Shown: one piece after another, positions 2,240 to 29,964 of the stretch
Numbering within the stretch: position 1 is the first letter of the stretch
Layout: each line of letters opens with the position of its first letter
Assembly: GCA_010093605.1 (NCBI GenBank)
Contig: MU004186.1
Coordinates: 2,150,616 to 2,214,615, forward strand
Direction of reading: 5' to 3'
DNA length: 64,000 nucleotides
From: Lophium mytilinum
Lineage: Eukaryota
The notes under the pieces: generated by a model
The model's input: the letters and a program-made list of their open reading frames with translations, nothing else
Told to the model about the DNA's origin: nothing
Database searches by the model: none
Translations under genes and position numbers: made by a program

Positions 2240-2771
2240 GGTGGTCAATGGCGCTTTGCGCGGCCGCCCGAGTCGCTGGAGGAAGGGCTATCGCATCAAC
2301 CTCGATCAGACAGAAGCAGCGTTGCAAATCTTCTCATTCGTCTAAGCATCCGGAGTCGGCAGGGCAATGGTGATGAGGGGTGTCGTAGAGCTGCATGCGG
2401 GTGAAGCTTCAAGGTTCAGAGCGCGACGAGATGGAATGCACCAGCCACATTTATTGCGCCACTTCCAATGTTCTTCTCCCAACGGCTGCACCTTAGCTGC
2501 ACCTCATCCCCCGCTGCATGACGCTTCGGGGCATGCTCCCAAGATGTCGCTCAACAACTGCGGAATGCCCAGCCCCCAGACGACTCAATGCCAGTATCAT
2601 CGCCCCGAAGGCGTCGATTGACCTGAGCCTGCCCTTCTGCACTCGCTTCCCAACATTCCTCCCTTCTGTCCAGCCTCCCCGCGCCACTTTATTTATAAAG
2701 AAGCTCCATATTCTGCCCCGCCATCACCAATTGGCCCTGCAGCTTCATTTCTCTCCCTTGCAGCCGTCGTC

Positions 2772-4422
2772 ATGGCGTCTCGAACAGATACTGCGACCAC
2801 TACCAGCGCCGACGTGTCCAATGGCCTTGAATCGAGATACAGCGATGCTACACGCCTATCTACGGCTAATGGCACTTCTACGACAATGTCTAGCGGCAGG
2901 AAGAAGAGGTGGGAGAGCAAATACAGACACGTCTTTGCTACCCATTCGGCCCAGCGACCGTCATGCCTCAGCGGCGACGCTGAAGAATCTCCCAGCTTTG
3001 TGGGCTTCCGCAATTTGATGGTAATCGTCTTGGGTGCGTACTCCTTATACATCTAGTGACGACCTTCCATTTACATGAACCGTAGTGGTTTCGAATCTTC
3101 GATTGATGATTGAGAATTTCCGAAAGTACGGTGTGCTAATATGTATACGATGCCACGACTACCGCCGACAAGACGTCATATACGGCTCCATCCTTTACTT
3201 CCTCGTTCCCTGCCACCTCCTCGTCGCATATATAATAGAATTGGCTGCGTCCCAGCAGGCCAAGCGTGGTGTAGCCCGGATGAAGAAGGTCAAGGAGCAG
3301 CCAAACCCAGAAGAGCACCAGCAAGAGCTACGGCGAAGCTTCCTAGCTACATGGAGGTTGATTGCGACCGCACACGGCGTCAATGCGACTCTAAACCTGT
3401 GCATTGCGACCTGGGTTGTCTACTACCATATCCACCACCCTGGAATCGGGACCCTTTGTGAACTGCATGCCGTCATTGTCTGGCTGAAGGTCTGCTCGTA
3501 TGCCTTCACCAATCGAGATCTCCGGCGTGCCTATGTGTCGCCCAAAGAGTCTGATCCACTCCCTGAGATCTACAAAGCGTGTCCGTATCCCCTGAACATC
3601 AACTGGAGGAATCTCTGCTACTTTTGGTGGGCTCCCACACTGGTATATCAGCCAGTCTATCCTCGTACACCAAGCATCCGCTGGCCCTTCGTCTTCAAAC
3701 GACTCACAGAGACCGCTGGTCTCACCATCGTCATCTGGATAGCGTCAGCCCAGTACGCAGCGCCTTTGCTTCAGAACTCTCTGGAGAAGATATCCACGCT
3801 TGATCTGGTTTCAATTTTGGAGCGAGTGATGAAGCTTTCCACGATATCCCTATTCTGCTGGCTGTGTGGATTCTTTGCGCTATTCCAATCCTTTCTAAAC
3901 GCCCTGGCGGAAGTGATGCGGTTCGCGGACCGCGAGTTCTACGCCGAGTGGTGGAACGTGTACAGCATCCGGACGTACTGGACTACCTGGAACAAGCCAG
4001 TATCTCATTTCATGAAGCGCCACATCTACTCGCCCCTCATTGGGAGAGGTGTGCCACCTCAAGTAGCCCAGTTCATCGTTTTCACTCTTTCGGCAGTTTT
4101 GCACGAGCTGCTAGTGGGTGTGCCTACGCACAACATCATAGGCCAGTACCGCCGATACTATCAAACTTTACCGAATACTAACCTACACGCAGGTGTTGCT
4201 TTCGCTGGCATGATGCTCCAAATCCCTCTCATCTTTATCACGGACAGAATCCAAAAAATGAAAGGCGTCAGCGGCAAGGTTGCCGGCAATGTTATCTTTT
4301 GGATCAGCTTCTGTCTGGTCGGCCAGCCTTTAGCCGCGTTACTGTATTTCTTCGCCTGGCAGGCAAAGTATGGGAGTGTGTCCAAGCAGCCCACTCAGTT
4401 CAGCTTCTTCCATCGTCGCTAA
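2772..4422 (+). CDS. MBOAT acyltransferase of the DGAT1 / sterol O-acyltransferase (ARE) type; 3 exons
   Basis: Motifs GFRNL, APTLVYQPVYPRT, FADREFYAEWWN, YWTTWNKPV and the catalytic His in SAVLHE. Introns 3034-3085 (GT-AG) and 4142-4192 (GC-AG, inferred). Confidence 0.92.
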
Positions 4423-4810
4423 TGGCTGGTTAACATATGTATAGGGATGACTCCTCGGACTTCTGGACTACGAACATATTAGGCGGCGTTGATAAGGTCC
4501 GCAGTATCAAATTTAATTCTTTCCAGTGATTCACACTTGTGCGTTTTTTCTGGACCGCGAGTGATGTGCCTTTCTCCAATTCTGACTCGCATTCCTACAT
4601 ATAGACTTCTTGCACCCTGCAGATCTTGCACGCTTTACGCTCGGATCTGCACCTAGGAGGTGGCCAGCATCCCTTCCGCGAATCTTAGACCATGTCACCT
4701 AGTATTAGTAAGCACGGAACCTGCGTGAATCCCTTATCGATGTCATTACAATGTCAGTGCTTGGATGCCCTCAGCTTATCTCTGTCATTAATTCATCAGT
4801 TACATCGAAC

Positions 4811-5395
4811 ATGGCATCCCCAACTCCCAGCTCCCACAGATACTACTTCTTGAAGACTCGTTCGCGCACCGGCGCCGCGAAGTACGACAGTTTATATATC
4901 CGCCTCCACGGCAACGGCGTCGACGATGTCGTCCTCACTGCAGCCCCGCCGGTTTTCCTACGCGCGTACGATGAGCTGGCTACCAGTGCCGCTTCTACCG
5001 AGCCCAGAGGCGGCACGGCGGTTAAGTTCATCTCTACCAAAAGTGGGGATAGGCAATGGAGTTTAGCTTTAGGTCGGCCGCGAGAGTTTGTGGGATGGGA
5101 GCCTGTGCAGATTGTGGCTGCTGCTGAGGATGATGGAGAAAGGGAAGGGGAAGCAGGGGCGCGGTGGGTGCAGAAGGAAGGGCCTTCGCAGGAGTACGAG
5201 GCGCTGGAGTGGGACGTTGGAAGCTCCGAAGGGGATGGCAAGGGGGTGTGGAAGGGCTGGATGGTTTGCGAGTGGGTGCATGGCCATCCGCAGCTCTTTT
5301 GGGTGACAGGGATGTTGGACTCGAGGGGGAAGGAGCTGGACTTGCCGGGGTTTTGTGAGAGGGTTGAGTTGGTGAGGGAGGGGGTGGAGGGGTGA
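4811..5395 (+). CDS. Hypothetical fungal protein (about 194 aa)
   Basis: Single open frame from ATG 4811 (alternative ATG 4751). C-terminal Trp/Cys motif WKGWMVCEWVHGHPQLFW...CERVEL resembles small fungal beta-rich proteins. Confidence 0.65.
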   Translation: MASPTPSSHRYYFLKTRSRTGAAKYDSLYIRLHGNGVDDVVLTAAPPVFLRAYDELATSAASTEPRGGTAVKFISTKSGDRQWSLALGRPREFVGWEPVQIVAAAEDDGEREGEAGARWVQKEGPSQEYEALEWDVGSSEGDGKGVWKGWMVCEWVHGHPQLFWVTGMLDSRGKELDLPGFCERVELVREGVEG

Positions 5396-6015
5396 GTACG
5401 GTTGTGAGTGGCTCTGAAGTTCATTGCTGTTGTGGGGTTTGCTAATCGGATGGTAGAGAGTCTGAGTATTTCCTTGAGGTTCTAGGATCGCTTTTCCAAA
5501 TAATGTCTGGGTCGACTTTTCGTTCTCAGAAAGGGTCTGTGTGAAGAAAGAAAGCACTTCATGAAGGGTATGAAAACTATGCGCAGAGACTTCTCTACGT
5601 GCAGTCGCTGCCGGTCAAGAAACTTCTGGTCACAATAGGAAACAAGTGCATTTACAATGCTTCCTGGAAAAAGAGCTTATTTGCTTGCATTTGGGTTTGG
5701 TCAAGCTTGAGGATGAGAGCCTATCGGGTTCGCGTTCAACTGATTGTAGCCTCTATCAACTTCCCCGTACGTCCAGGGTGACATCACATATCTCCAAAGT
5801 GATTGCCAACATAATTAGGAGTAAGTACAACATTCTACCTACTTAATGCGGTCATTGTTCAGTGTTTCAGTATACACAAGACGAGTGGGTCGTGTAAAAC
5901 ACATCGCATTATACGGGATCAACGCCAACTGCACAATGCAGAGACTTCTATATAATGTACCGCAAGCCTAAACTACGGCAAGTAGAACATCCTCTCTGAA
6001 CTCGTTCCTGCAGTG

Positions 6016-8211
6016 ATGGATTCCCTCAAAGACTTTGGAAACTTTCTGAACGCACAGAATGCAGTCAAGGCCATACAGATGGGCCAAATAGCTGGTCTCA
6101 TTGGCGACACCTCAAACGACCATGGGCTCAGCGCCAACAAGATTCTTGGGGAGGGTGGCTTCCTGTCGCCCCTTCAAAAGCGCATTGAGGCAAAGACGGG
6201 GATAACAGTCCCTATGGTCCTGACAGCCCTCGCCGTGTACAATTCGGGAAAGCTTGGAGGCCTTGCTTCTGAAGGTATTCGCGTCTTCCGAAGGTTTGGT
6301 ACCTCATCTATCCAGATAGATCTGCGTCATTCGCTTGCGAAAGCGGTGGATAAATGGCTGATCAGCAATTCTACCGGTAAGCAGACACCCCAGCACGTAG
6401 TCGTTGAAGCCGAAGGTGGTAGTAGTGGCGAGCAGAACGATTCAGTCAGCTCTAAACTGACCGTCTCACAACAATCAGGAGCACAATGGTTCTGGTACAA
6501 CGGCCGGGTTTTCCTGTATGAGTATGGATATCAAAACGGAGAAAGCGATCGCGCATACGGAGACTACGAAACGTTAACTCTCGTATGCTTGGGCCGTAGC
6601 CCGGCGCCGTTGACCAAGTTTCTGACTTTCTGCCAGAGCGAGGCTAGCTCCAAAGTGAAAACGACCGAGGTATTCACGTATAGCAAAGGATATATTCACG
6701 GGTCAAAACAGCCGGAAAAGCCGAGTCGCCCTATGGAGACGATTGACCTGGATCCGTTCCTCTACCTCGATATCCTGACCGACGCGGAATCATATTTCGA
6801 CGAGGAAACGCGAGCGTGGTACCACGAAAATGGGACACCCTACCGGCGAGGTTATCTCCTTTATGGCCCTCCTGGTACCGGCAAAACTTCACTGTCTTTT
6901 GCTTTGGCCGGGCGGTTTGACATTGGCCTCTACGTAATCAATCTCAACGAAGCAGAGCTTGATGACGCGAAGCTTATCGAACGATTCAGTAACCTGCCAG
7001 ATAAGTGTGTGGTCCTCTTGGAGGACATAGACGTCGCTGGTATCGTGATGGATCGTCATATGGCGCATGAGCCATCCACCGATGGTAGCTCCGGCTCAGA
7101 TCAAACCACCCTCTGGGAGGACACGAGCGGCCATCAGGTGGAGAATAGGCCACAGCCTCCAGTGGCCTCGAGAAACTCTAACCCCCAAAAGATTTCTGCC
7201 GTAAGCCTCAGTGGCCTCTTGAACGCCATTGACGGTCCCACGTCGAAGGAAGGTCGTCTTCTGATTATGACGACCAACGCACCACGAAGTCTTGACCCAG
7301 CTCTCTACCGCGCGGGTAGAATTGACAAGAAAATCTATCTGGGATACTCGACGAAGCGGACTGGTGCGATTACCTTCCGGCGAATCTTTGCCAATGATCC
7401 TTGCAATAAGTACAGCATGGACGAAATCACCGATTTTGCCCGACGATTCGGAGCCAAGGTGCCCCTTGACACTTTCACACCGGCAGAGTTACAGAACTTC
7501 TGCATGGGCTATCGCGGAAAGCCTCAAAAGGCAATCTCCGAATTCGATGTCTTCATTTCCCGACGGTTCAGCGGGGAAGATGGTTTCGAGTACGACATCG
7601 GCGACGGTGGCGGAACCGATGGTGACAATGAGCTCGAGCTCTCCGAGGATGAGGCCCTCGAAGACTTGCTGGATCTTGATTTCTCCTACCTGACACAGGA
7701 GGGGATGTCAAAGTTCCGTGTCAAGAATGGAGAGGATGTTCCCTTGGGCGACGGCTTCTCTCAAAGCTCGGATGAGCATGGAGAAGAGGCACACGAGGCT
7801 GAAGAGCGCTTCGGAGACCATACCATCCGGACGGTCTTCAGTGGACCTGCTCTTTTGGCACTTGCCAGTATCGATGAGCAGTCGAAAGGCGGGGTCCTCG
7901 ATAGCCTTCTTGCTCACTTTGACTACGACCCGGAAGAGGTCTACGGTCTGGAAGAAGAGTCCTGCAGCGAGGCGGATTCTATAAGCAACGAGGGAGAACA
8001 CCGGGGGGCTCGTTCCTATTTCGCATACTTTAGAAACAGCCTCGTCCCCGGACTCTGTCGTAGGAGCTCCACGACACCGTCGCCCTCCATTGAGTTGCCC
8101 GCCGGTTCGCGAGGACCGCGCACTCGGGGAGAGCTTGAGCGGCTAATTGCTCCACTCACCACATCAAATGGAGATCTACGAACCGTAGATCCGATGCCAA
8201 TTGTGGAATAG
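6016..8211 (+). CDS. BCS1-like AAA+ ATPase, copy A (intact, intronless, acidic C-terminal extension)
   Basis: BCS1_N-like region (QWFWYNGRVF..., LTLVCLGRSPAPL), PYRRGYLLYGPPGTGKTS (Walker A), LLEDID (Walker B), SLSGLLNAIDG, MTTN, LDPALYRAGRID. TATATAA at about 5949. Confidence 0.9.
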   Translation: MDSLKDFGNFLNAQNAVKAIQMGQIAGLIGDTSNDHGLSANKILGEGGFLSPLQKRIEAKTGITVPMVLTALAVYNSGKLGGLASEGIRVFRRFGTSSIQIDLRHSLAKAVDKWLISNSTGKQTPQHVVVEAEGGSSGEQNDSVSSKLTVSQQSGAQWFWYNGRVFLYEYGYQNGESDRAYGDYETLTLVCLGRSPAPLTKFLTFCQSEASSKVKTTEVFTYSKGYIHGSKQPEKPSRPMETIDLDPFLYLDILTDAESYFDEETRAWYHENGTPYRRGYLLYGPPGTGKTSLSFALAGRFDIGLYVINLNEAELDDAKLIERFSNLPDKCVVLLEDIDVAGIVMDRHMAHEPSTDGSSGSDQTTLWEDTSGHQVENRPQPPVASRNSNPQKISAVSLSGLLNAIDGPTSKEGRLLIMTTNAPRSLDPALYRAGRIDKKIYLGYSTKRTGAITFRRIFANDPCNKYSMDEITDFARRFGAKVPLDTFTPAELQNFCMGYRGKPQKAISEFDVFISRRFSGEDGFEYDIGDGGGTDGDNELELSEDEALEDLLDLDFSYLTQEGMSKFRVKNGEDVPLGDGFSQSSDEHGEEAHEAEERFGDHTIRTVFSGPALLALASIDEQSKGGVLDSLLAHFDYDPEEVYGLEEESCSEADSISNEGEHRGARSYFAYFRNSLVPGLCRRSSTTPSPSIELPAGSRGPRTRGELERLIAPLTTSNGDLRTVDPMPIVE

Positions 8212-8957
8212 GATGAGTTCGAAGCCTAGATTGTAAGACTGCTTCTCGCCCCTGTTCCATACTCTAATCCCCATTAGACTGACCTGATTCAGCGACTAAA
8301 TTAGTCGCTAATCTCAATACACAATTTCTTTCTCGATAAATAAATGTTGCTGGCAGTAGTGATGCTACATGATGTGTGCAGAATGCTAGTGAAGACTCTG
8401 AACATGTACGTAAGACACGTGTGTCTTTGCTCATTGATATTGTGAATCAGGACCTTTTGGCGAAGTCAAACCCATCGTACTTAATACCTGTTAGGGATTG
8501 GTGAGCGCTAAGAGGACACGGAAGTCATCATAAGTTTGAAGGGTTCGGAACAGGTACTAAGGCGGATCATACTCAGGGGATGAAATAAGTTTACTTAAAC
8601 TGTTAGCAAGCCTCCGTGCGATCCACACTTTGCTATCGATTATAGGCTGGATTCTATGGCGTTTCAACTAGTATAAAATTGATCAAAAGCTTACATATTC
8701 CTCGAGCCCCTTAAGAGAAGAGGTAACTCAACAGACTTTTGAAGTCATTTTCCTTGACCACTAAGTAGTGAACAAAACACCTGCTTCCACTCACGTGTTA
8801 TAGGTAGTCCCGCGGGCAGCGCGCCAGCGCCAGCCCCAGCTGCTTGCTGATATCCTTCTACTTTAACGCAGTAACTACCATGTTAAGTCCGTCACGTGAA
8901 CATCCTGAGTTCTGCCGTAAGAAAACTCGACTGTCTGCTGTGTGTTGGTCTGGTCTG

Positions 8958-9615
8958 CTCAAGACCATACGGCAGCCATTTCGACCTCTTTGTCAGCCAC
9001 GTTTTGACAAAAGGTCAAGAACTTGGTCAAAGGCTACGGGCTGCGTCCTAAGCATACCAGCATGAGGAAATTGTCGCCTCCACTTGACAAGCCTTTATTA
9101 TTCGCCTCCGCCCCCGACAGATACTGGTACAAAAAGAAGTGCCCGTCATACCGAAACCATTCGAGACCTGGTTTCCGGGAAACTTCGAGTGGTAGGGAGT
9201 CATCCTTGGATGTGGAATAGTTGTTCTCAACAGCTAAATGCTGAGTCTTTTTCCCAGCACAGTTGCCAATCAGCCACTTCTCGACGGCTTTGGCGAGATC
9301 ATGGCCGACATTGATTCGCACGGAGGATGTACCGAACTTCCGGAAAAGATCAATACCTCCCGAAGCTAGATCTCCCACCTTTCCTGAATTGTATACCGAA
9401 AGCGCTGTCAGGATCATAGGCAGTGTGATACCTGTCATGTCTTCGATTTGCTTTTGAATTGGCGACAGGAAGCCGTCTTTCCCTAAAAACTCGGCAGTGC
9501 TTGAACCGTCACTGCTCGGCATCTCGCCGAACATACCAGCGATCTGGCCCATCTGGAGGGCCTTCGCTGCGTTCTGGGCATTCAGAAAGGTTTTAAGGTC
9601 CTTGAGAGTTTCCAT
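8958..9615 (-). pseudogene. Truncated BCS1-like paralogue, copy B (N-terminal part only, in-frame TAG)
   Basis: METLKDLKTFLNAQNAAKALQMGQIAG...CLGRSP*PLTKFLTFCQ aligns with copy A (MDSLKDFGNFLNAQNAVKAIQMGQIAG...CLGRSPAPLTKFLTFCQ). Homology continues past the TAG at 9034-9036 and then ends; no AAA domain found. Confidence 0.85.
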
Positions 9616-10342
9616 GGTGGTATGGTGACTGCTGAAAGTTGTTTCGACTAAACTCTCGAAGGGAAACGGGGGCAAAAAGTTCCTAGTCGGGGTGGTGGAG
9701 GCGAGTGATTGTATTGGGGTTCCTTGCTTTGTTGAATTGAGGTTCTGGGGGAACGGTGAGGTGGTGGTGGTGATGGTGGTGTGGGAATGGGTAAGGGAAT
9801 CTCTGCTCTCCTGTGTTGACTTTGGGGAAATTTATGTAAAAGCCTTTGCCCTCGAAACATGATGAAAGTAGTCGGGGAGTGAATTGCTGTTCAGCTGGGC
9901 GCCTTCACGCTCCTTGTAAAGGATCCTTCAAGAGACCCGCGCTGCGTCCCCTTGGGTGCTAGTGAATTGGGGCGCGGCTTCATAATCTTTGTGTCAACAT
10001 TGATTACACACAATGCAAAATAAGGTATAGGGGCTCTTCGAAGTTTGATATATCATAGAGAGTTGTAAACTAGAACAGTTAGCGTTTGCTTTGTAGGCAC
10101 GAAAGGACGTCTGAGAATAGGATTGCTTTACCACGTATTTGATCATTTGGGTTGTGTAGAAGAAGCATGTATGGAAAAAGAGTTCATTTGCTATGATACA
10201 ACTAGGATCGCCCCGATTCTTTTACCGGGGAAAATGTGAACAGTTAACTGACCTCATTCGTCGTGAGCAAAACGAGTTTGAGTGGAATTGCGGCCGAAGG
10301 AGAGCTTGCAGGTGTTGGAAAGAGGACGATTTGGTTCAATGC

Positions 10343-13300
10343 TCACCGCCAGACGTTCTCGTCACTCTCAGGGTATAAAAAGTCAACGACTTCGTCTTCA
10401 CTTTGACCTTCAGTGACATCAGACTCAAGGCCAGGTATTTCTGCTGGTCCGGCGATTGAAATCGCTGCTTCAGGTTCTGCCAGAGCTGTGGATCTTTGGC
10501 TAGGCCCGATGACTTCATCAGTCTCTGGATGCAGACACTCAACTACTTCGTCTTCACGTTGAGCTTCATTGATTATAGGCTCAAGACTCAGTGTCTCTGT
10601 CGGCTTCAGAGTTGCTATGGCTGGCTCAGGTTCTTCCGAAGCCAGTGACCCTTGATCAAGGCTAAGGACCTCGTCAGAGTACTGCTGGAAGAACTCGATG
10701 TCTTCCTTTGAGTACTCGTATCCCGGATTGACTTCCAAGGTATCAACATCTATGCTCTCCAGAATCGGCATCGGCTCCACGACCGTGAGTTCGGTAAGTG
10801 GACTCGCATCCCATGGAGGAGGATCTTCTTCTTGTAGAAGAGTCGTTGGCCAGTGCCGAGGACGGATTCTCTCTAGAGCGGAGGGCCTTTGCAGAAGCGC
10901 CCTCGGTGTTTCCAGCACAGCAGAAGTTGCAGAAGCCAGCTTATTCGAAGCCAACCATGTAGTGCTTTGGAAGCAGGGCTCGGAATCAACCGATCGATCG
11001 ATTAGGCCTCTCGAAATCGATCGAATCGACTGCTTAATCAGCAGATGCCCAAATCAATTGAATTAATCGATTCGATATCGAATCAATCGAAGAATCGAGA
11101 TGGTTAAAGGTATTTGGAGGCTTGGCGCAGCGTATAGGTAGTATTAAGATATATAAGATAATATTGATTTTAGTTAATATCTAAATCCCTATTAAAAGCC
11201 CTTTAATACACTTTCTTATAAAGTAATAGTAGTTACAGCGGCATAATACTGCTCTATTAGAAAGATATAATAGAAGACGCACTTAATATAGTCATGTGAT
11301 ATATAAGCACGTAACAAAATGCTTATATAATATAATCTCCCGGCGAAGCACGGCCAATAAACCGCATCTTACGCGGCCAAACTGCTATTGTATTTACACC
11401 TTCAACCATGTCGATTTTCAATTGATCAGGCCTCCTGAAATCAATCGGTTGAACTGTTTCTAGATGGCTAATCAATTAAATCGAATTGCCAAGACTTCAA
11501 TTGATTTCGATCAACCGTTCGATTGGTTGATTGACTCCGAGCCCTGTTTGGAAGATCGATCCTGCCTTTCTGTTAGCGGCGCTAACTGATTGCTTAATAC
11601 GCGAACCGAACCCTTGCTGTACCTGAGGAGGCTGGTATACTGGCATACTTTTACGCTCAGGTGGCTCCCGTTGAGTCGCTCCGCGATTTGATACTTTGCC
11701 AGGGTTGAAGAGGTACGAGAAATCTACGCTTTCTAAGTCCGCTAGCGCTGACCTCTCGTGCTCGACATCCTCCAACTTGGTCGCCTCTTCACCGTTGTCG
11801 AGTTTCTCGGCGAGGTCATACTTGAATTGGTTGGCACCAGTCAAGCGGCCGAGCTTGTAAGCCTCAAACTCTGATATGGCTCGATGTGGCTTACCGCGCC
11901 GATCCATGCAGAAGTTTTGTATTTGTGCCGGGGTGAAGGTGTCTTTAGGCATTTGGCGGCCAAAGTCCTTCGCCATTGTTGTAATTTCGGCTTGAGTGAA
12001 TCGACCCTTTGCTCTAGGGTCGGTCCAGAAAATGCGGCGAAAGGTGATCGCTGCTGTCTCCTTAGTACAGTACCCAAGGTAGACAACTTTGTCCACGCGA
12101 CCGTCACGATAGAGCGCCTCGTCCAAGGACTTGGGGGCGTTTGTGGTCATAATGAGGAGGCGACCCTCTGGTGCTGCAGGTCCATCTATGGCATTGAGTA
12201 GTCCACTCAACGTTACCCTGGGAACTGGCACTGCTTTTTTCTTGGGAGTCGCCTTTTTAGGGACCGCATGGTTTTCGGAGCTGTGCTCGCTCCTTTGGTC
12301 TTCAGCATCTGGCTCTTTTGAATCTTCTGAAGACTCGTCTTCGTCTTTCATGCTGGTGCGGCTAATTCCGGCGGAGTCAATATCTTCCAAGAGCACTACG
12401 CATCTCTCGGGCAGATGTCCAAACCTAGTAAGTAGCCCATTGTCATCTAATCCCTGTTCGTTGAGGTTTAACACATACAGCGGCAGATCAAAGTGACTTG
12501 CTAAAGCAACACTCAGAGAAGTTTTCCCGGTTCCAGGTGGGCCGTAGAAGAGATAGCCGCGACGATGAGGCCTACCGTTTTCACGATAGTAGGACTTAGT
12601 CTCAGGGTCGAAGTAGTCCTCTGCATCTGACAAAATATCGTCGAAGTCTTTCCGGGGCAAATCTACCGTGTGTAGCGCCCTGCTGGGCTTCTGAATATGA
12701 CTGTAATAATCCGCAGTGATGTGGGCGCCGGGCTCTGCAACGTAGATGTTAGTGAACTTCATTCCCCGCTCAGATTCGTTCTGGCAATGAATCAAGAAAC
12801 TCTTCAAAGGCTCAATGCTACGACCGAGACACGAGACTAGCATATCTTCGGAATTCTTGCCTCCATGCCTGTCGTTCTTAGAAGGATGCTCTAAGAAGAA
12901 GATCCGTCCATCAAACCGGAACCATTGGAACCCGCTCGTGGGCTCAATCTGGAACATCATTCCGGTGTTACCTGGTTCCTCGGCAGGTATCTCTGCAGGC
13001 TCGTCTTCCCATCCGGAGCTCTCGTCATTATGTTGACTGCTGAGGTCAAAAGATGGTTTCAGAACCACGTGCTGTGAACCTTTGCCCCCAGTGGCCGAAA
13101 TGAGATGCTCGCTGATCGCTTTCCCCATCTTGTCGTTTCGGTTCAGACGGACAGAACATGTTCCGTGCTGCCGAATGAAAGTAGGCACCTTGGAGGTAGT
13201 ACCAGGAATTCCAGATTTATAGAGGTCAAAAGCGAACGAGACTATCGATGGGTTAAGCCCCACTTTTTCGAGTATCTTTTTATGAGACAGCAACGAAGTG

Positions 13301-13461
13301 TCGGCTTCGTTATCTTCTTCATCAATTGAATGGTCTTGACTTGAAGAATCGTGATCCTGATCGGAGAGGTTCTCGGCATTCTTCATTGGAGAGGCCCTCC
13401 TAGCCGTGGTTGTGTTGAGCTTGCCAGCAAGCCCGCTTACGATGTGTGCCAAAGCGAACAT
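10343..13461 (-). CDS. BCS1-like AAA+ ATPase, copy C, interrupted by a MITE (current ORF 11497-13461; orphaned tail 10343-10965)
   Basis: PHRRGYLFYGPPGTGKTS, LLEDID, VTLSGLLNAIDG, LDEALYRDGRVD. Removing 10974-11546 plus one TSD copy fuses ...GSIFQ to STTWLASNKL... in frame (845 aa). Confidence 0.88.
10974..11546. mobile_element. Non-autonomous hAT-type DNA transposon (MITE), 573 bp
   Basis: Terminal inverted repeats CAGGGCTCGGA(A/G)TCAA at both ends. 8-bp TSD TTTGGAAG at 10966-10973 and 11547-11554. Subterminal ATCGA/ATCAA arrays, AT-rich core, no transposase. Confidence 0.92.
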
Positions 13462-27628: not shown

Positions 27629-29964
27629 TCAAGCCACCTTCGCCTCCGCCTCCTCAACCGTCTTCTCCAAAAAGCTGAGCAAGACCTGCGCCGAAGTAAA
27701 CGTAAGCGACACCCCCTTCGCCGGCACATCCGTCTTCGGCGCTTTCCTGTCCTCACCAGCCTGCCTCTTTGGAATCTCCAACGGCAGTGGCCCAAATGGC
27801 AGATCTTCTTTTAGGTAGGGATCCTGCAGGAGCTTCATCGCATCCCTGTACGGGTCGTGCTCAGGGCTCTGGAGCAAGAGCGCATCGAGCATCTGGTACA
27901 CGCCTCTGATGGCGCTTTCCAAAGCGCCTACAATCCATGCGTGATGAGCAGACGCGGCCTCGCCGATGAGGAAGAGCCAGCCATTCTGCTGGATGATCTC
28001 GGGCCACATGTTGGAGAACTGGCCGGGACCAAAATAAGCAAAGGCGCCGGACATGTTAGGGTCATTGTACCAGTCCCAGGCGTGGTGGTCATCGTAGAGT
28101 TCCTCAAGTTCCGCTCGCAGAGCTTTATAGGTGTCGGGAGTAGAATGCAGAAGCGCGAGGTCGTTGAGCAGAAGCTCCTTCAGCTCCGTTTCGTGCTTGG
28201 AATTGGTAGGATTGGATATCAGCGTTCCGATTCTTTGTGCATCCTGGGCCCAGGTATAGCTGCAAAGCAGGACTGCCGGCTTTTCGTAGTCGTCATGTAT
28301 ATTGTAGGACGGGTACACGCAGACACGAGTCGGGCGGTCTGTCTTTGCAACCCCACCACTGTTAATGTTGTGAGGTTCCTTCATCCACCATGCTTTCTTA
28401 AACTTCATTCCAACTTTGCAAGAAGCGCCATAGCCCAGCGAACGGATGGCTTGTTTGGTGCCGTAGCGCAATCCCGCGTCCTTGAGGTCCATCCGTTGGA
28501 GTGCTCCGAGAGTAGTCGAGTTGAATACTGCGAAGTAGTCCCTGGTCTCAGTCGGAGCAGATGGCTCATCGGCGTGTTTGATTGTCAAAGTCATGGTTCC
28601 CGTTTGGTCCGTTGAGATTTTTGTCACTTGTCTGTTCAGCTCGGGCTTCTTGACCAATTTGTCGGCCATGAGCCGGGCTACCTTTTGCGTTCCGCCCTCA
28701 ACACATAGCCATTTGGTGTTGTCTACAGAGGTCGGCTCCTCGACACCAAAGTCAAGTGCTTCAAGGACAGTTTCTGCGAGAGACTGATTGTACCACCCGG
28801 TGGCGCTGCAGTGGCATGGTCAGTGTGCGATCGCACTTCGATGCACCGTGGTTTTCTTACTAGGCAAAGGTCTCAAGCCACTCGATAGTATTAAAATTGT
28901 ATGGTCTCTTGAGAGGTCTCTCGACAGTTGGTAGATCATCTTGAAGGTCGGTACTAACGCAAGTCAGCGATGTTGCAACGTAGGTCTTTTGAAGAGTAAG
29001 CACTCACGAACGGAAAAATTGGCGTGTGCTCATGTAGTCCGCCGCTTCCAGGAGTTTCCAACCGTCGACACTTCCAATATCCATGTCACCCTTCAAAGCT
29101 GTCACAAATGGCTCGATGGCAGTTTCAACTATCTTCCCAGGATCTTTCGTTAAAAGTCTAGTATTAGTTCAGCAGATGGAACGCATAAGCGCAGAATTGA
29201 TACACAACAGCACTTACTCTTTGGGAATTCCCTTAGGGTCACCATCTTTGTAGTCGGCATTGACGCCATAGGGATCCAATGCCCCTTCACTAGGGCCTCC
29301 AACATATCGTTTGTCGTTAAAGTATGTAGGGCAAACTTTCTTGTAATCATCAAGATAATAGGGCACCAGGCCACCATTTTCCTTTGTGAGACCTAGATAC
29401 TTGAAAAGGCGGAATGTTCTAAGTTTGAATTAGTATCTGTATTAGGTTTTTAGCAACTGCGGAGTGGAGTTGCCTTTTCATCACATCGTTCTCCGGGAAT
29501 CTCATGGCCCCGACATCGTAGTAGTCGTGCGGGAGCTCAGTGTCCTTGCTAAAGTGATGCGTATAAAGCCTGCCGCCCAATCGACTATCATCAGCCGCTT
29601 CTAGGATGTCATACGTGATCTGAAGATCTTCGCTTTTGATGTGCTGATTGACGAAGTCGAGCGTCATTGCCGTAAAAAGCCCAGCACATCCTGCCCCGAC
29701 TATGCCGACATGAAGCTTTTTGCGATCAGTAGGAGCTTCTCCAGTCAACTTGCTTTCCCCTGGAAGCAGCTCCTGCACACGATCCATGAGTTGCGAGATA
29801 GTGGTCGCAGCAGGGAGGTTCTGTTTTCCACTGATCTTTTCGTTGATGAGGGTGAACTTCTTGTCCAATTGCGCTCGAGCGACATATCGAGCCCATTGGT
29901 ACTTGTATGGATCACGGTTTGATGTGTTGCTCACAGCAGGAGGAAGGTTGACAAGAGTGGCCAT
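27629..29964 (-). CDS. Flavin-containing amine oxidase / L-amino-acid oxidase family; multi-exon
   Basis: GIVGAGCAGL dinucleotide-binding motif, RLGGRLYT, YYDVGAMRFP, GAFAYFGPGQF, GEAASAHHAWIVGALESA. Confidence 0.9.

Follow-up and report, generated by a model that had tools for sequence, protein, structure and literature searches.

An old local trio of Bcs1-type ATPase genes in Lophium mytilinum and the Dothideomycete subfamily to which it points

Here, we describe three neighbouring genes for Bcs1-type AAA ATPases, called A, B and C, in a 64,000-nucleotide stretch (G000:C6:2150616-2214615) of the 43.4-Mb genome of Lophium mytilinum, a saprobe on wood that belongs to the Mytilinidiales. This whole stretch is referred to as the window, and positions are counted within it. 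We read the three genes as accessory, non-respiratory ATPases of the Bcs1 type, an old local trio that belongs to a Dothideomycete subfamily and is being thinned out, and we give this reading a probability of about 0.6. The cluster itself, consisting of an old duplication, one pseudogene and one insertion of a miniature inverted-repeat transposable element (MITE), represents ordinary genome turnover. Its value is that it exposes a Bcs1-like subfamily of Dothideomycetes with a conserved tail motif, together with two natural structural variants. Moulds are already known to have additional homologues of Bcs1 that are non-respiratory; what appears to be new here is the Dothideomycete subfamily with its tail motif, of which we found no description in the literature searched (Bcs1 paralogues and expansions in fungi and in Dothideomycetes, with thin coverage of subscription journals).

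The first-pass annotation of this DNA placed three paralogues within about 7.5 kb, and this is borne out. Copy A (6016..8211, + strand) is an open frame of 731 amino acids when unspliced, with the Pfam domains BCS1_N (residues 84-243), AAA and AAA_lid_BCS1 (residues 454-509), all above cut-off, followed by a disordered tail from about residue 570. Copy B (8953..9615, - strand) is a 5' fragment of about 221 codons that retains BCS1_N alone; it is 56% identical to the first 221 residues of A and has an in-frame TAG at codon 195 (9031-9033). The A-like sequence in B stops near 8962, and a search for an AAA remnant between A and B found none. B is a pseudogene. Copy C (13461-10343, - strand) also has BCS1_N, AAA and lid domains above their Pfam cut-offs and is interrupted by a 573-bp element, its two pieces being stop-free and in register. 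Two partial public gene models, P0271 and P0136, are identical to A and C, respectively, across the residues that align. Two further ideas were rejected: a common promoter for A and B, which gave just a 21-nt match, and repeat-induced point mutation (RIP) as the cause of decay, the TpA/ApT ratio being 0.60-0.75 in A, B and C vs 1.57 in the transposon parent.

The proposal that these copies form a non-respiratory subfamily is supported. The genome has nine BCS1_N loci, and the true Bcs1 is among them, elsewhere, on contig C3. When compared with yeast Bcs1, the C3 locus scores 398 bits, A 144 and C 114, and the C3 gene retains the DDR motif and has DWS at the EWR position. Judged by these scores and by the trees, the genome's orthologue of yeast Bcs1 is the C3 gene rather than A or C. 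The EWR and DDR motifs of Bcs1 contact Rip1, according to the available text of PMC12219900. In our alignment, yeast EWR is replaced by IHG and DDR by DAK in A, and DDR is replaced by DNG in C; as far as alignment can tell, the Rieske-binding motifs are lost in both. According to PMC10672213, moulds carry two to eight Bcs1 homologues each, and two of the three homologues of Aspergillus fumigatus, Bcs1B and Bcs1C, are dispensable, lie outside mitochondria, fail to complement yeast bcs1 and have no deletion phenotype. As extra homologues beside a true Bcs1, with a C-terminal extension, A and C resemble the Bcs1B/Bcs1C type.

The motor appears to be complete. Walker A, the Walker B glutamate, the sensor-1 asparagine and both arginine fingers are intact in A and C, so that by their motifs these are active-type AAA ATPases of the classic clade, with presumptive ATPase activity; a two-arginine finger is also a feature of mouse Bcs1 (PMC7994207, available text). 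A shared departure from ALIRPGR to ALYRxGR had been singled out in A and C. The motif is indeed present (ALYRAGR and ALYRDGR), and loss of its proline is common in the clade described below without being universal, the proline being retained in 10 of 39 clade rows vs 243 of 287 other rows. Since the arginine fingers are kept, the change spares the catalytic arginines. The AlphaFold model of A has a mean predicted local distance difference test score (pLDDT) of 66.6, with a core near 90 and a tail below 50, and, among its fold matches, Bcs1 chains rank first (E 3e-27). With regard to the N-terminal transmembrane helix and internal import signal of Bcs1, the best 19-residue hydropathy is 1.25 in A and 0.89 in C vs 2.30 in the paralogue on contig C7, a comparison that lacks the full helix of the canonical gene as a control.

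Homologues were collected by searching 1.84 billion representatives with a profile and by two further searches by word, and a tree of 53 AAA cores was built with a quick IQ-TREE run, with support given only as the Shimodaira-Hasegawa approximate likelihood ratio test (SH-aLRT). B, which has no AAA domain, was left out of all trees, and four proteins without a parsable Walker A were left out of the 53-row tree. A clade of 35 of the 53 rows, with an SH-aLRT of 99, unites Pleosporales genera, Tothia and Mytilinidion with the Lophium copies; within it, A pairs with the Mytilinidion protein P0270 (100), and C joins them next (90). Its members are about 27-35% identical.

Two marks distinguish this clade. 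The first is a GxxxFxY element after the AAA lid, found in 32 of 39 clade rows and in 0 of 264 other BCS1-like rows; in A, it reads GxxxFxYD (7573..7599, + strand). The FxYD...DFSYL combination described earlier is present in both A and C; beyond these two copies, DFSYL-like sequence was seen in the Mytilinidion orthologue alone. The second mark is a short motif, LxxVxPxP, which in A occupies the C-terminus (residues 721-731; 8176..8208, + strand). It occurs in 15 of 22 clade tails of at least 150 amino acids, where shuffled sequences lead us to expect 0.4, vs none of 31 non-clade tails and none of 123 control DGAT proteins. Tails below the stated lengths were kept out of these counts, and sequences that were duplicates or of uncertain clade status were kept out of the control sets. 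The pattern derives from the initial alignment, and eight sequences retrieved afterwards fit it too. The tails are otherwise unalignable. To our knowledge, LxxVxPxP corresponds to no catalogued motif, and an atlas search with the tail gave scores no higher than 0.85. The tails had been called long and acidic, but their acidity is unexceptional: aspartate and glutamate make up 0.20 of the tail in A and 0.19 in C, within the range of 0.17-0.31 seen in the genome's four tailed paralogues. In the Lophiostoma/Alternaria subclade (P0001, P0002, P0003, P0148, L037 and L061), a second tail block, RRPSHxDxxGRxNxxPxxG, precedes LxxVxPxP.

We also scored the tails for the FFAT motif (a pair of phenylalanines within an acidic tract) with the matrix of PMC7705450 Table EV4, adapted to allow D/E at position 4, and with a cut-off of 2.5 of our own choosing. 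This cut-off is reached by 12 of 34 clade tails (4.5 expected) vs 2 of 51 others. An FFAT motif in A was rejected, the best score in its tail being 5, and the best in the C tail, 3.5, is weak. In one subclade, FFAT-like motifs lie 0-4 residues from the C-terminus, with scores of 0 (P0071), 1 (P0124), 2 (P0123), 1.5 (L055:7479-10076) and 3 (P0140); these are candidate anchors to VAP/Scs2 at the endoplasmic reticulum (ER).

None of the copies was thought to have an apparent intron. In the contigs of run X3, however, A has two in-frame GT..AG joints. The status of this run as RNA is a tool's guess, no run being recorded as RNA; its contigs are spliced at the introns of neighbouring genes, and 12 of the 14 placed contigs are at least 99% alike. 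The run covers A, for example with a contig at 6637-8279. Intron 1 (6377..6478, + strand; 102 nt, codons 121-155) has the joint 6375>6478 and the signals GTAAGC..CTGAC..CAG, while intron 2 (6583..6636, + strand; 54 nt, codons 190-207) has the joint 6582>6637. A scan of the open reading frame (ORF) of A for canonical splice signals returned precisely these two introns and one alternative acceptor; the same scan returned none in B and none at homologous places in C. An in-frame intron within a coding exon is termed an exitron (PMC9276941, available text), and the introns of A fit this description, since they are in frame and free of stops, lie within homologous coding sequence, have canonical signals and were seen spliced. 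The segment of intron 2 is identical to B at 17 of 18 residues with a third-position identity of 0.50, and that of intron 1 at 11 of 28 residues. This conservation of residues with a homologous copy, together with the third-position divergence in intron 2, indicates that both segments are coding by origin.

The structural consequences of splicing differ between the two introns. Intron 1 spans the segment that aligns to the two strands, and to the D124/N125 tip, of the connector hairpin of yeast Bcs1, which contacts the neighbouring AAA domain (PMC12219900 and PMC7994207, in the text available for each). Splicing of intron 1 thus means that part of the A mRNA encodes a BCS1 domain without its connector hairpin, and this hairpin-less isoform would be either a tuned subunit or a defective one. 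Loss of intron 2 takes away the last part of one strand and the greater part of the next helix of the BCS1-specific domain, in a region with a pLDDT of about 90. Summed contig depths give about 29 for the form that retains intron 2 beside 10.6 for the spliced form, and 0 for retention of intron 1 among the contigs listed; such sums are indirect, as contigs drop variants and depth is not an expression level. Run X3 has no contigs over 9076-10527, which comprises B and most of the 3' piece of C, and this should be taken as a blank rather than as silence.

Copy C was described as interrupted by a MITE, and we can confirm this. Its 5' piece (11547..13461, - strand) holds BCS1_N, a complete AAA domain, the lid and the FxYD element in 638 codons with no stop and no frameshift. 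The 3' piece (10343..10965, - strand) has 206 codons, again with no stop, and carries the tail motif at 10763-10789. Between them lies the 573-bp element (10974..11546, no strand assigned), which is non-autonomous, has imperfect inverted ends and is flanked by identical 8-bp target-site duplications (10966-10973 and 11547-11554). It has 10 matches in the genome, including one further full-length copy at 83% identity, and 8-bp duplications also border copies of the family on contigs C16, C1 and C21. Its ends are 76-84% identical to those of a 3.7-kb RIP-mutated element on contig C1 (L028, G000:C1:673074-676765), which is collinear by tblastx with two loci bearing PF05699, although the PF05699 profile itself has no match on it. 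The 8-bp duplications and the ends in common with the hAT-like C1 element identify the insertion, by its sequence features, as a hAT-derived MITE. The C1 element is itself full-length, heavily RIP-mutated and hAT-like, with an 8-bp target duplication, and is the likely parent family of the MITE.

The reading frame of C enters the element for 16 residues and ends at a stop at 11497-11499, giving a product of 654 amino acids in which the motor is whole and the tail motif is gone. A run X3 contig (11443-12156) continues from C into the element. C is not necessarily dead, since a transcribed 654-amino-acid ATPase remains; either the insertion happened recently or selection still acts on the 5' piece. 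A joint that skips the element was found in none of the three runs, two of which are possibly from source DNA. Two side observations concern the ends of C. Its tail contains a 52-residue internal duplication (10348-10677; 21 of 44 residues identical), and its residues 1-28 (13378-13461) are basic, rich in serine and threonine, free of acidic residues and, in composition, similar to a mitochondrial presequence, which the first residues of A and B are not; the start codon of C is uncertain.

The copies are old. Synonymous (dS) and nonsynonymous (dN) divergence was estimated with a simple Nei-Gojobori count, which operates near saturation here: A and B give a dS of 1.91, a dN of 0.35 and a ratio of 0.18 over 215 codons, synonymous sites are saturated between A and C, and dN/dS is 0.15-0.18. 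The A-B ratio implies that B was under selection as a gene through most of its existence. The syntenic orthologue of A in Mytilinidion is P0270, with 183 of 218 core residues identical, compared with 199 of 217 for the paralogue on C1; in Mytilinidion, DGAT1 and the A orthologue are on one contig of 671,803 bp, two accession numbers apart. The tree distance to the Mytilinidion orthologue is 0.30 for A, 0.13 for the C1 paralogue and 0.35 for the C18 paralogue. No Mytilinidion orthologue of C was found among the 120 matches listed or in the profile search, and an unannotated copy is possible. The tree places the split between A and C before that between the Lophium and Mytilinidion lineages. In none of six species outside the Mytilinidiales do a clade member and DGAT1 share a contig.

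Taken together, these results modify the picture of a fast-evolving cluster undergoing birth-and-death. Fast evolution does not agree with a syntenic one-to-one orthologue of A, a dN/dS of 0.15-0.18 and a tree distance that lies between those of two paralogues. Birth-and-death fares better, as B is dead, C is cut and no Mytilinidion orthologue of C is listed, but it must be slow, given copies as old as a dS of about 1.9 suggests. Stable one-to-one orthology under purifying selection, the pattern named beforehand as contradicting the birth-and-death proposal, was found in part, for A. As judged from these comparisons, the data fit a birth-and-death process that is slow and runs under purifying selection, A being the stable member.

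Three rival explanations have to be weighed. The entire locus may be decaying, A included, in which case the introns of A would be cryptic splicing that selection has not removed and the tail-less C would be junk. Two of the three copies are damaged, intron 2 cuts a well-folded part of the protein, the splice signals of A are missing from B and C, the depth sums are consistent with no assembled contig retaining intron 1, and the A. fumigatus paralogues lack a deletion phenotype in the available text of PMC10672213. Set against this, the frame of A is open over 731 codons and retains every catalytic motif as well as LxxVxPxP, and A has an orthologue conserved in place; both of its introns are multiples of three, and the 638-codon piece of C is intact even though the closest other full-length copy of the element matches it at no more than 83% identity. 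We therefore consider general decay unlikely. That A or C is a second respiratory Bcs1, specific to a tissue or condition, would agree with their domains and fold and with the presequence-like composition of the first 28 residues of C, but a canonical gene is present on C3, the Rip1-contact motifs are lost, and the extra homologues of A. fumigatus fail to complement (PMC10672213, accessible text), which makes it highly improbable.

The first-pass annotation had also suggested defence, cell death or allorecognition, and the subfamily would then be a component that turns over through conflict. Some weak hints of this stand. Retention is patchy, with several old subclades in the tree. A metagenome scan gave at least 80 loci, of which 8 of the 80 listed are in the clade and 4 have usable neighbours. 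A HET gene adjoins or is fused to a member in two of the six visible contexts: L038:1804-3588 (- strand) is a HET gene head-to-head with a clade member, missing at the like position in L039, and one Ophiobolus gene model (P0139) is a HET domain fused to a member. Two members occur together on a contig of Ophiobolus, as they do on one contig from a metagenome, and the gene models of Pyrenophora tritici-repentis (the P0137 cluster) range from 145 to 787 amino acids among isolates. In this cluster, one strain has a split model, which may be polymorphic breakage or annotation noise. The other side is stronger in our judgement: dN/dS is 0.15-0.18, A is syntenic in two genera, and the Pleosporaceae-like loci L055 and L060 have both neighbours in common. 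With at least 152 HET matches in the genome, HET adjacency comes cheap, and none lies in the window among the 150 matches listed (150 of 274 candidates scored). The available text of the literature joins bcs1 and heterokaryon incompatibility through isolated mentions at most. Repeat copies aside, the three runs listed do not differ from one another. A role in conflict thus seems to us decidedly unlikely.

We return to the trio as accessory non-respiratory ATPases under slow loss. This reading is founded on the anatomy, the clade, the motifs, the synteny and the splice joints of one run, all of which are shown here, and several points weigh against it. The splicing is known from contigs of a single run whose RNA status is guessed. 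LxxVxPxP is missing from 7 of the 22 long tails (two of them near misses), its carriers are related and hence not independent, and in the monomer model it mostly has a pLDDT below 50, so that this model predicts no docking. Ring formation, ATPase activity, a folded client, docking of the tail and any function of the isoforms are what we infer.

Under the preferred reading, A and C would, like Bcs1, assemble into rings, hold a folded client inside the AAA cavity and, upon ATP binding, move it or remodel it. The client would be a protein other than Rip1, and they probably act elsewhere than at the respiratory inner membrane; within the disordered tail, LxxVxPxP most likely docks a partner or regulator. 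Ancient duplications would have been held under purifying selection, with A staying in place in two genera, while B would have been stripped of its 3' two-thirds and acquired a stop, and C would have been hit by a MITE that spares the motor and removes the tail motif. A would have acquired splice signals within its coding sequence, leaving part of its mRNA hairpin-less. A bolder version, which we offer as speculation at long odds, is that the clade is a regulated, tail-docked mover of folded proteins beyond the respiratory chain, in which LxxVxPxP recruits a partner, the FFAT motif of one subclade (perfect in P0071) ties the ring to VAP at the ER, the protein acts as a translocase or extractase at ER contact sites, and the ring is tuned by hairpin-less A and tail-less C. 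A short motif conserved in otherwise unalignable tails provides a direct handle for finding partners, and variants that lack the hairpin or the tail in nature would offer a test of which parts of Bcs1 couple the ring.

The trio lies with a DGAT1-DUF7907 pair on one side and a hypothetical gene on the other, and a tryptophan synthase gene is found further downstream. DGAT1 (about 2545-4422) and the DUF7907 gene (4745..5395, + strand), which was identified by a Pfam match, define the syntenic block; of two flanking ORFs scanned with Pfam, one gave DUF7907 and the other no match. One contig of the RNA run spans 2300-5820, from DGAT1 through the DUF7907 gene, and spliced introns between and after the two genes (4539-4604, 4708-4799 and 5404-5456) suggest read-through or overlapping transcripts. 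A 51-nt intron at 4140-4190, in frame and stop-free, lies inside the long open frame of DGAT1, which indicates that open frames of this genome are able to hide introns. Elsewhere in the window, the ORF at 27629-28819 (- strand) is presumably a flavin amine oxidase or L-amino-acid oxidase.

Several known systems provide a comparison. Like exitrons, the introns of A are internal to a coding exon, have sizes that are multiples of three and delete part of a domain when removed; they come from one fungal run, however, whose contigs give no evident sign of a form that retains intron 1. The inserted element resembles other hAT-derived MITEs in its 8-bp target duplication, short inverted ends, lack of ORFs and ends shared with a long hAT-like element, but differs in its low copy number in this genome (10 matches). 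The BCS1-like proteins of plants (AtOM66; AAA_assoc PF14363 and AAA_lid_At3g28540 PF25568) are likewise expanded ATPases of the BCS1 clade, with a language-model feature similarity of 0.96, but have another N-terminal Pfam domain, and the kinship seen here stops at the BCS1 clade. AtOM66 is linked to cell death in plants, a role that is not transferable to A and C. With Bcs1/BCS1L, the heptameric Rieske AAA translocase (PDB 6SH3, 6UKO and 8TP1), A and C have in common the BCS1_N, AAA and lid domains, the fold, the catalytic motifs and both arginine fingers. They differ from it in lacking the EWR/DDR client motifs and in having long inserts after Walker B, the GxxxFxY element, a disordered tail of about 160-280 amino acids with LxxVxPxP, dispensable copies and, for A, an isoform with the hairpin spliced out. 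A further comparison is with Bcs1B and Bcs1C of A. fumigatus. The Aspergillus rows of our tree, which are from species other than A. fumigatus, fall outside the clade, and the available text of PMC10672213 has no tail motif, clustering or splicing; in both cases, nevertheless, these are extra non-respiratory homologues of moulds with C-terminal extensions.

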